64,000 nucleotides of DNA from Gemmatimonadales bacterium (GTDB lineage Bacteria; Gemmatimonadota; Gemmatimonadetes; Gemmatimonadales; GWC2-71-9): the NCBI GenBank assembly GCA_045803245.1, contig JBJMPK010000122.1, positions 438 through 64,437 on the forward strand. Reading direction: 5' to 3'. The translations under genes and the position numbers were made by a program. Positions 1 to 32,792 of this stretch are shown here, piece after piece (the stretch's first letter is position 1; the number at the start of each line of letters is the position of its first letter). The notes beneath the pieces were generated by a model, which worked only from the letters and a program-made list of their open reading frames with translations, was not told the DNA's origin and ran no database searches.

Positions 1-1161
1 ACCAAGAACCCCGTGTTCCTGCTGGATGAGGTTGATAAGCTCGGTGTCTCGTTCCAGGGCGATCCCGCGAGCGCGCTGCTCGAGGTGCTCGACCCGGCCC
101 AGAACGACTCGTTCGTCGACCATTACCTCGGCGTGCCGTTCGATCTGAGCGAAGTGCTGTTCATCGCCACCGCAAACTTCATTCAGAACATTCCGGGGCC
201 GCTGCTCGACCGGATGGAGATCGTGGAGTTTGCCGGCTATACCGAGCGGGAGAAGCAGGAGATCGCCCGGAAGTACCTCATCCCGCGCCAGTTCAACGAG
301 AATGGGGTCAACGCGGAGCAGCTGACCATCACCGATGGGGCGTTGTCGGAGGTCATCACCAGCTACACCCGCGAGTCGGGAGTCCGGCAGCTGGAGCGCG
401 AGATCGGCCGGCTGGCCCGGAAGGTGGCCCGGAAGATCGCGACCCAGGAGGTCGATCGAATCACCATCGACCGCGAGATGGTCGACGACCTGCTCGGCCG
501 GCCCAAGGTGCATCCGGAGAAGATGGCGCGGGAGGACGAAGTCGGTGTCGCCACCGGCATGTACTACACGCCCACCGGCGGCGATATCATGTTCGTCGAA
601 GCTTCCACTATGCGGGGCAAGGGCGAGCTGGTCTTAACCGGTCAGCTGGGCGACGTGATGAAGGAGTCGGCTCGGGCGGCCTGGACCTACGCCCGGTCTC
701 ATGCGGCGGCGTTGCAGATACCGGACGAGATGTTCGACCGGGATATCCATATCCACGTCCCGGCCGGAGCCATCCCGAAAGATGGGCCGTCGGCCGGCGT
801 GACCATGGCGTCAGCTGTGGTTTCGGCCCTGTCTGGCCGCGCCGTCCGCCACGACATCGCCATGACCGGGGAGATTACTCTCCGCGGTCGGGTGATGCCG
901 ATCGGGGGAGTCAAGGAGAAGGTATTGGGTGCGGTCCGGGCCGGAATCACCCACATCATCCTGCCCAAAGAGAATGAGCCGGACCTGGAGGATCTGCCGC
1001 GCGAAGTGCGCGATAAGATCGAGGTATTCCTGGTCCAGGAGCTGGGCGAGGTGCTGGCCTTTACCCTCCGCGGCGCCACTTTCCGCGAAGGACGGCTGCT
1101 CTTCGGAGACGAGAAGAATCCCAGAGACGTGCTGCCCCTCTCGACCGGGTTTCGGCACTAA
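1..1161 (+). CDS. lon: Lon protease, C-terminal part (5' end outside window)
   Basis: Frame 1 is open from base 1; the track ORF 13..1161 merely starts at an internal GTG. Translation shows the AAA+ region ([25 protein letters not shown]) and the S16 protease domain ([31 protein letters not shown]). TAA at 1159-1161. Confidence 0.95.
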
Positions 1162-25038: not shown

Positions 25039-30659
<5,621 letters not shown>

Positions 30660-30677
30660 CAGTGATCTCCGGATATT

Positions 30678-30760
30678 AAAAAACCCCGAAGCCAAAACGC
30701 CTCAAGGGGAGCGTTTTAGCGGTTTATTTAACGTGGCCGCAATCAGCGCAAATCGCCACG
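30678..30760 (-). promoter_or_regulatory. structured metH leader: hairpin, possible pseudoknot tail, and terminator/antiterminator (riboswitch-like, class unverified)
   Basis: In RNA sense: P1 hairpin CGUGGC..GCCACG (30732-30760). A GCUAAAACGC tail follows. AAAACGC (30711-30717) can pair with GCGUUUU (30694-30700). The alternative structure is CCCC-GAGGC/GCUUC-GGGG (30684-30709) followed by U6 (30678-30683). Confidence 0.4.
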
Positions 30761-30788
30761 GAGTCAATTGTTAAGCCTAAAGCTAACG

Positions 30789-30804
30789 CTCTCGGCGTCG
30801 AGAG
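30789..30804 (-). terminator. short hairpin directly after the yggT-like stop
   Basis: ctctcg gcgt cgagag forms a 6-bp stem. No clear U-tract follows, so terminator function is uncertain. Confidence 0.3.
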
Positions 30805-30805
30805 T

Positions 30806-31327
30806 CTAGAGCAATCCCATGACGAAGCCTCGGACCACATACAAGACGAGCCAGGCCACCATGGGGCTGAAATCGATCATGCCAAATGGGGGGAGAATTC
30901 GCCGGATAGGGTCAATGAGCCAGTTGGTGAGGACGTAGAAAGGACGCATCCATTTTCGGTAAGGACCGATACCGAACCACGATCCGATGACTCGGATCAG
31001 AATCGCGGTCATGAGGACGGTAAAGAGGAAACTCACCAGCGATTCCAGCCACATCCGGGGTCCACTCTGGGCCATGAATTCCAGGCGCACGACCGTATCG
31101 ATGAGCCATGCTGCCAGGCTCATGAGGACCAGACCGGCGGCTATCACGAGGCCAAGGAGCCAATAAGGGGCATTCTGAGGATTGCCGCCGGCCCGGATGA
31201 CGCGGCGTTCAAGGGGCAAGACCACCGGATCGCTGATCCGGCGGACGAAACGGGCCCAGCCGCTGAACGGCTCGATGCGCCGGTTTCGAACCGCCCAGTG
31301 CGTAACCGCAACGATCGCCGCGTACAC
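30806..31327 (-). CDS. YggT-family membrane protein (start probably upstream)
   Basis: Two YggT repeats (DPVVLPLERRV and DPIRRILPPFGMIDFSPMVAWLVL). The first canonical start, GTG 31327, truncates a hydrophobic helix that continues in frame upstream (ILFYLHTAIRSLVLLAL). Confidence 0.75.
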   Translation of the reverse strand: MYAAIVAVTHWAVRNRRIEPFSGWARFVRRISDPVVLPLERRVIRAGGNPQNAPYWLLGLVIAAGLVLMSLAAWLIDTVVRLEFMAQSGPRMWLESLVSFLFTVLMTAILIRVIGSWFGIGPYRKWMRPFYVLTNWLIDPIRRILPPFGMIDFSPMVAWLVLYVVRGFVMGLL

Positions 31328-31377: not shown

Positions 31378-31818
31378 TTACTTCTCCACCTCCATGGGCC
31401 GTTGTGCCCCGGAGCTAGCGGTGCACATGATCGTAAAGAGGCCGCGTACGGCTGCCTGCTCGAGGACCTGACTGTCTCCCCGGCAGGAGAGTATCTCGCG
31501 CCCAGTGGGCTGACGAAAGGCCACCGTCACGACCGGCTCCCGCTGAACGTTCACCACCCGGCGTACCGTATTGGTGGTGAGACTCTCGATCCCCATCATG
31601 CGGAAATTCGCTGCCGGGCGCCCCCGGTGGGAACCGCGGTAATCGACCGCGCGGTCGACCAGCTCGTAGACTTCGCGGCCGAGGATGTGGGCATCGCGTT
31701 CGTCGGGCGGGAGATGACTGTCATCGGATGCAGGACGGGCCCTCGAGCTGGCCCGCTGGTCACAACCCACGACCGCAATGAGTGCGAGAATGACCAGCCA
31801 GGGGAACCGGCAGCTCAT
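31378..31818 (-). CDS. hypothetical lipoprotein
   Basis: Lipobox (LIAVVGC). The ATG at 31818 forms an ATGA overlap with the desaturase stop. Confidence 0.5.
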   Translation of the reverse strand: MSCRFPWLVILALIAVVGCDQRASSRARPASDDSHLPPDERDAHILGREVYELVDRAVDYRGSHRGRPAANFRMMGIESLTTNTVRRVVNVQREPVVTVAFRQPTGREILSCRGDSQVLEQAAVRGLFTIMCTASSGAQRPMEVEK

Positions 31819-32792
31819 TCCATTGCGAATTCGCGGTTGAACACGACCTCGAAGCTGAAAGTCTTGCTCTTGGTCCGGGTCTCCATGTGCTCGGCAATCC
31901 GCTTGAGCCGAGCCGGAATGCCCATGATCTTTTCCTGCGCTTTGCGTCCCAGCTCGTTCAGCCCCTCCAGGCTCTCGATCTTCCAGTAGCGAATCTGCTC
32001 CTGCACGATGCGGAGGTAGTCGCGCGGGCCGTAAATCCCCGCCCGGCGGATAACCTCGGCCAACTCTTTGAATCCGGGCATGGTGACCCCGGGCATATCG
32101 ATGGCCGGAAGAATGAAGGACGCGGAATGCAGCGCCTGGTCGGGATCGCGCTTCAGGATCTCTTCGAACACGGTGCGGTAAAAGGTGTAATGCCGGGCCT
32201 CCTCTTTGGCCACCTGGCTGAGAATGGAGGCAAGGCGCGGCTCATATTCGGCGATGATCTTGCCGGTTTCGCTGTGGGAGAACTGCGTGGCTCGTTCCTG
32301 AACCGTGGTGTAGGCAAAGACCCGATAGGGATCGCGATCCCACTCGGGATGGAAGCCGGCCCGAAGATATTCGAACTGCATCTCCTCGAGCTTCCGCTGG
32401 TGGAGCAAACGGGTATCCCGGGCGTAGTCGTGGAGCACCTGGCCGTGACGGTCCTCCTCCGCGGTCCACAGATTGTTCCAGCTTCGCCAGAAGCTTTCGT
32501 CTCCCAGGTACACCGCCAGCAGGCGGTGGAAGTGAGGCAGGCCCTCTTCGGTAAGGAGGTTCAGGGCCAGGGCGGCCCGCGCGGGGTCGGGGATTCCGGC
32601 GGCCTGGGCTCTCAACTCCGCGAGATGGGCGTCCGGGTCCTCATCCTGTGCCGGTCCCACCAGATCGGAGGGAAACCAGAGCTCCCGTTTCCGCTCGTGC
32701 GTTTCCATCAGCTCGCGAACCTTCTCTTCAAGGTCCTGGAGCACTTCGATCTTCGAGTAGAGTTCCCGAGCGGGTTCGGTGGCGATGCCCAT
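31815..32792 (-). CDS. soluble diiron acyl-ACP desaturase (DesA-like)
   Basis: Diiron ligand motifs (TAEEDRHG, KEEARH) and overall resemblance to stearoyl-ACP desaturase-type proteins. Confidence 0.85.
   Translation of the reverse strand: MGIATEPARELYSKIEVLQDLEEKVRELMETHERKRELWFPSDLVGPAQDEDPDAHLAELRAQAAGIPDPARAALALNLLTEEGLPHFHRLLAVYLGDESFWRSWNNLWTAEEDRHGQVLHDYARDTRLLHQRKLEEMQFEYLRAGFHPEWDRDPYRVFAYTTVQERATQFSHSETGKIIAEYEPRLASILSQVAKEEARHYTFYRTVFEEILKRDPDQALHSASFILPAIDMPGVTMPGFKELAEVIRRAGIYGPRDYLRIVQEQIRYWKIESLEGLNELGRKAQEKIMGIPARLKRIAEHMETRTKSKTFSFEVVFNREFAME

Follow-up and report, generated by a model that had tools for sequence, protein, structure and literature searches.

The SAM-II riboswitch, one of the classes named for S-adenosylmethionine (SAM), is built from a single stem (P1) and a pseudoknot, lies 5' of methionine genes, is often followed by an intrinsic terminator and was proposed to act as an OFF switch (PMC1273637). 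An intrinsic terminator after the pseudoknot helix P2 has been reported as the most common SAM-II arrangement in alpha- and beta-Proteobacteria (PMC2258182). The class has been described from alpha-Proteobacteria, some other Proteobacteria and Bacteroidetes, and the targets of SAM_alpha in about 200 proteobacterial genomes comprise metY, metA, metX, metC, hom and metW, but not metH (PMC4239095). In S. meliloti, the small RNA RZ, which is the predicted product of SAM-dependent termination at the metZ SAM-II element, was found to rise at high SAM (PMC9373788). Herein, a leader on the minus strand of a 64,000-nucleotide stretch from a Gemmatimonadales bacterium is analysed (assembly GCA_045803245.1, contig JBJMPK010000122.1, positions 438 to 64,437; the whole stretch is called the window). 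It precedes metH and a gene for a fusion of homocysteine (Hcy) S-methyltransferase with methylenetetrahydrofolate reductase (MTHFR), and we consider it highly probable that it contains a canonical SAM-II riboswitch, most likely working as a transcriptional OFF switch.

The locus shares with the described SAM-II elements (RF00521; PMC1273637; 2QWY in PMC3303485) a single P1, a P2 in which a GCUAAA tail pairs with the 3' half of the P1 loop, an L1 rich in U (GAUUUG), an L3 rich in A, a place in a methionine-gene leader after a promoter-like motif, and a terminator after P2. Unlike them, it has a host from the Gemmatimonadota, a P1 loop 4 nt shorter than the RF00521 consensus, and metH with the Hcy methyltransferase/MTHFR fusion as its target. 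As at S. meliloti metZ, SAM binding is predicted to lead to termination and to a short leader RNA; metZ belongs to another phylum, represents another gene and comes with in vivo data, whereas the window element is a prediction from sequence (Scheuer et al., 2022; PMC9373788). The SAM-I (S-box) leaders of Firmicutes, such as that of B. subtilis yitJ, are SAM-dependent terminator/antiterminator OFF switches of the kind proposed here, although SAM-I folds as a four-way junction and not as a pseudoknot triplex, and its model, RF00162, has no match in the window. In Firmicutes, SAM-I controls both methionine synthase and the Hcy-binding-domain/MTHFR fusion, and therefore the regulatory logic at the present locus is not new. 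Only the host phylum and the target gene are mildly new, and a search of the accessible literature found no paper linking SAM-II with Gemmatimonad*.

The class of the element was assigned by a cmscan search of the whole window against Rfam 15. The sole match, also at E <= 1, was to RF00521 at 30769-30695 on the minus strand, with 51.2 bits against a gathering score of 36, an E value of 1.4e-8 for the whole window and full-length coverage (model positions 1-79 of 79). The alignment contains the conserved GAUUUG, UUGC, UUAAA-AA and GCUAAA blocks. A permissive cmscan of 30550-30900 (relaxed filters, E <= 10) gave no match to the SAM-V, S-adenosylhomocysteine (SAH), SAM-I, SAM/SAH and cobalamin models, and the SAM-II long-loop model RF01726 reached 25.3 bits, below its gathering score of 44, which is a cross-hit from the core that it has in common with SAM-II. 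The leader is thus a predicted canonical SAM-II (RF00521) riboswitch upstream of metH. A first-pass annotation, made by a model from the letters of the window, had suggested SAM-II or SAM-V and had named the Rfam models to be searched; with RF00521 above its gathering score and no match to RF01826 (SAM-V), RF01057, RF00162 or RF00174, the first half of that suggestion stands and the second falls.

A different class or ligand specificity (SAM-V, SAM/SAH, SAH or a variant for a new ligand) would nevertheless have to be weighed, since SAM-V has the same binding-site architecture as SAM-II, a point that the first-pass annotation had also raised. SAM-V (RF01826) and RF01726 are small pseudoknot/triplex SAM aptamers with GAUUU...UUGC...GCUAAA-like cores, as here; SAM-I variants with altered ligands exist (PMC10853860), and the P1 loop of the window is short. 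We regard this alternative as very improbable, because besides RF00521 only RF01726, below threshold, scores among the SAM-class models in 30550-30900, the SAM-contacting positions are all kept and invariant, and the genes that follow serve methionine synthesis. Other riboswitch classes were rejected on the same two scans, and spermidine-variant riboswitches were set aside, as they concern SAM-I and not SAM-II.

The structure was compared across 17 leaders, namely that of the window, seven Gemmatimonadota genome loci (L001-L006 and L022) and nine metagenome leaders (L081-L087, L093 and L096). RF00521 scores above gathering directly 5' of metH in L001-L006 and 5' of metF-metH in L022, and altogether the same SAM-II position recurs in 15 other metH leaders, and ahead of metF-metH in L022. 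In the window, P1 (CGUGGC, 17 nt of loop, GCCACG; 30760-30732) is read directly from the sequence. Its loop, GAUUUGCGCUGAUUGCG, starts with GAUUUG (L1) and ends with UUGC and a closing G, and the tail UUAAAUAAACCGCUAAAACGC (30731-30711) follows directly 3' of the stem. P1 is paired in 99% of the cells across the leaders, and in beta-proteobacterial metH leaders it is wholly swapped to GCGCC/GGCGC. For P2, in which UUGCG (30742-30738) pairs with CGC-U-AA (30721-30716), the figure is 100%, with a closing pair that is GC in 10 leaders, GU in five and AU in two; the RF00521 model itself cannot score a pseudoknot. Both GCUAAA and the GAUUUG of L1 are invariant.

In the solved SAM-II structure, the major groove of P2b accommodates L1 (U10-U12), with U11 in a triple with U21-A45; the adenine of SAM is stacked between U21 and G22 on the 5' side of P2, and its pairing partner is the unpaired U44 of the 3' strand (PMC3303485). 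With the window numbered after 2QWY on the basis of that paper (U10-U12, U21/G22, U44 and A45), the U-run of GAUUUG would be the third triplex strand in the P2b major groove, corresponding to U10-U12, the SAM adenine would stack between U30741 and G30740 (U21/G22), and U30718, the presumed equivalent of U44, would be its partner. The positions matching the SAM contacts (30752-30750, 30741/30740, 30718 and 30717) are present in the window and invariant in the 17 leaders, and by this analogy we infer that the aptamer binds SAM.

The first-pass annotation had also proposed an H-type pseudoknot in which the tail pairs with GAUUUGCG in the P1 loop. The H-type pseudoknot holds, with UUGCG as the canonical partner in place of GAUUUGCG. 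Pairing of GAUUUGCG with the tail is possible in the window and throughout the Gemmatimonadota set, where both GCG motifs are conserved; it was rejected because it fails at the P2a positions in four leaders of betaproteobacterial type (L023, L030, L099 and L139). There, L1 is GAUUUGAC or GAUUUGAU, neither of which can pair with CGC, whereas three of the four retain the canonical closing pair n37:n54. The UU/AA and GC/GC pairs of these leaders were imposed by the pattern used in the search. On these grounds UUGCG is taken as the partner and GAUUUGCG as the triplex strand L1. A loop-internal CGC/GCG helix, drawn by RNAalifold between alignment columns 28-30 and 36-38, was likewise discarded: it is broken (C.A) in L006 and L096, both of which keep the P2 pair (A-U), and it is at most a feature of the apo state.

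Downstream of P1, all the elements that the first-pass annotation had listed were recovered where it had placed them on the minus strand. The segment GCGUUUU (30700-30694) is complementary to AAAACGC (30717-30711), and this pairing appears in the unconstrained minimum free energy (MFE) structure of the leader as part of an 11-bp helix. The hairpin CCCC-UU-GAGGC/GCUUC-GGGG (30709-30684), with U6 at 30683-30678, was found again by an independent terminator scan, in a 9-bp register at 30707-30684. By themselves, the hairpin with its T-run and the leader fold are statistically unremarkable, as two terminator-like sites (hairpin and T-run) were found against 1.0 +/- 0.9 in shuffled sequences and the z-score of the whole-leader fold is -1.9. 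What lifts the element beyond chance is the E value of the covariance model, together with the recurrence of the full arrangement in 16 other leaders.

The 11-bp helix (30720-30710 with 30701-30691, about -14 kcal/mol) is the antiterminator, and it is the MFE structure of both the leader and the nascent transcript. It overlaps the P2 3' strand on one side and the terminator on the other, and thus the P2 3' strand is the switching sequence, common to the pseudoknot and the antiterminator. Across the 17 leaders, 95.9% of the antiterminator cells are paired, and the RNAalifold consensus consists of P1 and the antiterminator. When each nascent RNA was folded up to the start of the right arm of the terminator, every leader formed an antiterminator of 6-13 bp and -10 to -16 kcal/mol (at least 10 pairs in 15 of the 17), whose strands are GCUAAAACGC, from the P2 3' strand, and GCGUUUURGC, from the terminator loop. 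When the SAM-locked state was mimicked by holding GCUAAAN unpaired, the terminator hairpin formed in all 17 (-13.8 to -22 kcal/mol, the window having -13.8 kcal/mol), and a U-tract adjoins it in 16. Folding was carried out sequence by sequence because indels misregister the 3' arm of the terminator in the MAFFT alignment.

The clearest comparative signal comes from the contrast between the stem and the loop of this terminator. The stem varies by compensatory changes, as in CCUUGAGGC/GCUUCGGGG, CCUGAGGC/GCCUCAGG, CCGUGAGGC/GCCUCGCGG, GCCC-CAGC/GCUGGGGC and GCCCGGGG/CCCCGGGC, while the loop GCGUUUURGC is nearly invariant over the 17 leaders. Terminator loops normally vary freely; here the loop doubles as the 3' strand of the antiterminator and must match the invariant aptamer tail, which accounts for its constancy. 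Where the tail departs from the common sequence, the loop changes accordingly (AAACCGC/GCGGUU in L022 and ACGGC/GCCGU in L096). Covariation in the MAFFT alignment gave, for the OFF state, 1/500 to 5/500 shuffles on three of five measures.

From these helices the following mechanism can be proposed. At low SAM, the tail GCUAAAACGC(U) (30720-30710) would be free and, once GGCGUUUUGGC (30701-30691) had been transcribed, would pair with it as the 11-bp antiterminator. From the terminator, this would take up the 3' end of the left arm, the loop and the start of the right arm, so that RNA polymerase would read on into metH and the Hcy methyltransferase/MTHFR gene. At high SAM, the tail would be locked into the P2/L1 triplex, the C-rich arm 30709-30699 would pair with GCUUCGGGG (30692-30684), and transcription would end in U6 (30683-30678), about 20 nt ahead of the start codon. 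An OFF-switch attenuator is what the first-pass annotation had read here, and it remains the most likely reading, with an Rfam match in hand, a structure that is kept in orthologous leaders and a competition between terminator and antiterminator that is conserved in all 17.

Several points weigh against this interpretation. In the MAFFT alignment, the covariation of P1 and the antiterminator is unremarkable (76/500 shuffles), which is explained by columns that barely vary, and the aptamer is so conserved among the 17 leaders that neither P1 nor the greater part of P2 covaries. The hairpin of L022 has a poor U-tract, intrinsic termination of this type by the RNA polymerase of Gemmatimonadota is an assumption, and the proposed switch is a prediction from sequence and folding. 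Several leaders have a terminator that is thermodynamically favoured over the antiterminator; the switch must then be kinetic and co-transcriptional. A kinetic, co-transcriptional decision is usual for such switches. In addition, the terminator that follows the SAM-II aptamer of S. meliloti metA was not predicted to be SAM-controlled, and a hairpin after an aptamer is therefore not automatically regulatory (PMC9373788).

A rival reading follows what was proposed for metA: the aptamer would be a SAM-II aptamer but the hairpin a constitutive attenuator, with SAM acting instead on translation, mRNA stability or Rho-dependent termination. At metA it was the mRNA that SAM binding stabilised (PMC9373788), the greater stability of the terminator in several leaders would fit a constitutive attenuator, and in the whole-leader MFE the 5' flank UGACUCC pairs with GGAGAUCA in the Shine-Dalgarno region. 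This sequestration of the Shine-Dalgarno sequence was examined as a candidate and rejected, as the pairing is not conserved in the other leaders. The Shine-Dalgarno sequence lies 45 nt 3' of the aptamer, outside both helices. Moreover, the antiterminator of all 17 leaders is built on precisely the P2 3' strand, the terminator has an invariant loop on a varying stem, and a changed tail goes with a changed loop in L022 and L096. Thus, a constitutive attenuator appears unlikely, and the SAM-dependent OFF switch is preferred.

The position of the leader relative to the coding sequence was examined in the same set. In the orthologous leaders, a GGAG/GAG box stands 3' of the U-tract and is followed 5-9 nt on by GTG, TTG or ATG, which agrees with the GTG at 30659 proposed for metH in the first-pass annotation. 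The longest open reading frame reaches further, to a TTG at 30695 inside the terminator, and that annotation had recognised that such a start would make the U-tract coding. This TTG is not a conserved start and was rejected, because orthologous leaders exclude a start at that place: in-frame stops bar it in L003, L087 and L093, and no start codon is present in that part of L001 and L085. An element that is no regulatory leader at all, being the 3' end or terminator of the upstream YGGT-family gene or partly coding with metH beginning at TTG 30695, is barely credible. The reach of the longest open reading frame and the distance of just 37 nt between the YGGT stop codon and the element speak for it, whereas the conserved box and start codon 3' of the U-tract, the stops or missing start codons inside the terminator, leader lengths that differ by non-multiples of three, a promoter-like motif that 13 of the 17 leaders carry in the interval from the YGGT stop to P1 and the covariance-model E value of 1.4e-8 speak for a leader.

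In SAM-II elements, a promoter is usually located a few nt 5' of P1 (Corbino, 2005; PMC1273637). In the window, a -35-like TAGACT (30808-30803), which overlaps the TAG stop of the YGGT gene, is separated by a 17-nt spacer from a -10-like TAGCTT (30785-30780), and the 13 leaders just mentioned, the window included, carry T[TA]GNNN-16..18-TANNNT at 19-29 nt 5' of P1. The -35 element starts with TTG in 11 leaders and with TAG in the window and L086. A stricter consensus promoter scan called no promoter upstream of P1. The motif is accordingly described as a putative sigma-70-type promoter at 30808-30780, from which we infer a transcription start about 12-15 nt 5' of P1. Between the -10-like box and P1 (30761-30774 in the window), most of the 17 leaders have a conserved (G)UAACAA(C/U)(C/U)GA that exceeds the 5' flank consensus of Rfam and may mark where transcription starts. 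Right after the YGGT stop (30789-30804, minus strand), within the putative promoter spacer, there is also a perfect hairpin of 6 bp, CUCUCG-ACGC-CGAGAG; followed by CGUUAGCUUU, it forms a weak terminator-like site that was not seen in the orthologous leaders. The coordinates of the features are collected in Table 1.

Table 1. Features of the metH leader and of the genes behind it, in window coordinates.
Feature	Position	Strand	Basis
Putative sigma-70-type promoter	30780..30808	-	Motif comparison among leaders
RF00521 (SAM-II / SAM_alpha) match	30695..30769	-	Rfam covariance model; aptamer core 30760-30714
P1, CGUGGC (30760-30755) / GCCACG (30737-30732)	30732..30760	-	Sequence and Rfam structure line
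L1, GAUUUG	30749..30754	-	Invariant in 17 leaders; role by homology to 2QWY
P2 5' strand, UUGCG, in the 3' half of the P1 loop	30738..30742	-	Paired with the tail in 17 leaders
L3, A-rich linker UUAAAUAAAC	30722..30731	-	Aligned to the conserved UUAAAcAAg segment of RF00521
P2 3' strand, CGCUAAAA, with unpaired U30718	30714..30721	-	GCUAAA invariant; presumed equivalent of U44
Antiterminator, GCUAAAACGCU (30720-30710) / GGCGUUUUGGC (30701-30691)	30691..30720	-	MFE, RNAalifold
Terminator, stem 30707-30699 / 30692-30684, loop GUUUUG 30698-30693, U6 30683-30678	30678..30709	-	Terminator scan
Shine-Dalgarno GGAG 30670-30667, 7-nt spacer, GTG 30659-30657	30657..30670	-	Leader comparison
metH, 1248 aa, first regulated gene	26913..30659	-	Pfam
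Hcy S-methyltransferase + MTHFR fusion, second operon gene	25039..26916	-	Pfam PF02574 + PF02219

The genes under this leader were identified by Pfam. The metH product has all five domains (S-methyl_trans, Pterin_bind, B12-binding_2, B12-binding and Met_synt_B12) and is a complete cobalamin-dependent methionine synthase, and the second gene encodes a PF02574-PF02219 fusion, which we take to be YitJ-like. Both findings bear out the operon of metH with an Hcy-methyltransferase/MetF gene that the first-pass annotation had described. The probable ATG of the second gene overlaps the metH stop as ATGA (26916-26913), and the two genes are therefore almost certainly co-transcribed and translationally coupled. 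The longest open reading frame called for the second gene (GTG at 26946; 25039-26946) is probably 10 codons too long.

Regarding the lineage, over its first 400 residues MetH shares 83-86% identity with sequences of Gemmatimonadales metagenome-assembled genomes (MAGs) and 64-73% with Beta/Gammaproteobacterial MetH, and the G+C content of the window is about 65%. Among the Gemmatimonadota loci, L022 (1404-1510, a Gemmatimonadales MAG) carries its aptamer about 1 kb 5' of metH, ahead of an MTHFR-like gene with a FEFFPPK motif; behind the G+C-rich hairpin of this leader stands AAGCCGUUUCC in place of a U-tract, and the locus may have a non-canonical terminator or a different control mode. In L082 (1378-1486, metagenome), the aptamer tail and the start of metH are about 108 nt apart through an insertion after the terminator, compared with about 55 nt in the other leaders.

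Outside this set, most proteobacterial metH relatives have no Rfam match, and of 20 more proteobacterial and other loci none reached a gathering threshold. A diverged SAM-II-like aptamer is present in the betaproteobacterial-type metH leaders L023 (2431-2545), L030 (2430-2540), L099, L139 and L156. That of L023 scores 29.5 bits, under the RF00521 gathering score of 36, and is therefore missed at default thresholds. In this type, P1 is GCGCC/GGCGC, the core GAUUUG...CUUGCG...CCGCUAAAG is kept, and a hairpin with a U-tract follows. In an Anaerolineae relative with a MetH of 68% identity (L033, 2321-2425), a SAM-I element of 90 bits was found at the equivalent position; one regulatory slot is thus filled by SAM aptamers of different classes.

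A wider picture may be drawn from these relatives, which we hold to be tentative and rather doubtful: SAM-II would be a conserved, lineage-wide regulator of the last methionine step (metH with a yitJ-like gene or metF) in Gemmatimonadota, metH may have been transferred between Gemmatimonadota and Beta/Gammaproteobacteria along with its SAM-II leader, and the terminated leader of about 95 nt could act in trans, as was suggested for S. meliloti RZ. The joint transfer is suggested because the MetH proteins are 64-73% identical to the proteobacterial ones and the beta-type leaders carry the diverged, sub-threshold SAM-II.

With this assignment, a methionine-synthase operon from a little-studied phylum is correctly annotated, and both the taxonomic range and the regulon on record for SAM-II become wider. 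The Gemmatimonadota set offers, with its fixed loop and changing stem, an unusually clean comparative view of a SAM-II expression platform. The understanding of riboswitch mechanism is left unchanged, and any Rfam-based annotation pipeline would label the element.

On either side of the operon, the neighbouring genes were also inspected. An acyl-CoA dehydrogenase gene lies 3' of the fusion gene after a gap of 34 nt. Upstream of the leader, the YGGT-family gene ends at 30806 and, two genes upstream, 31815-32792 on the minus strand codes for a member of the acyl-ACP desaturase family (PF03405, E = 7e-97). The desaturase gene is followed by an open reading frame of 146 aa (31378-31818), which has no Pfam match.

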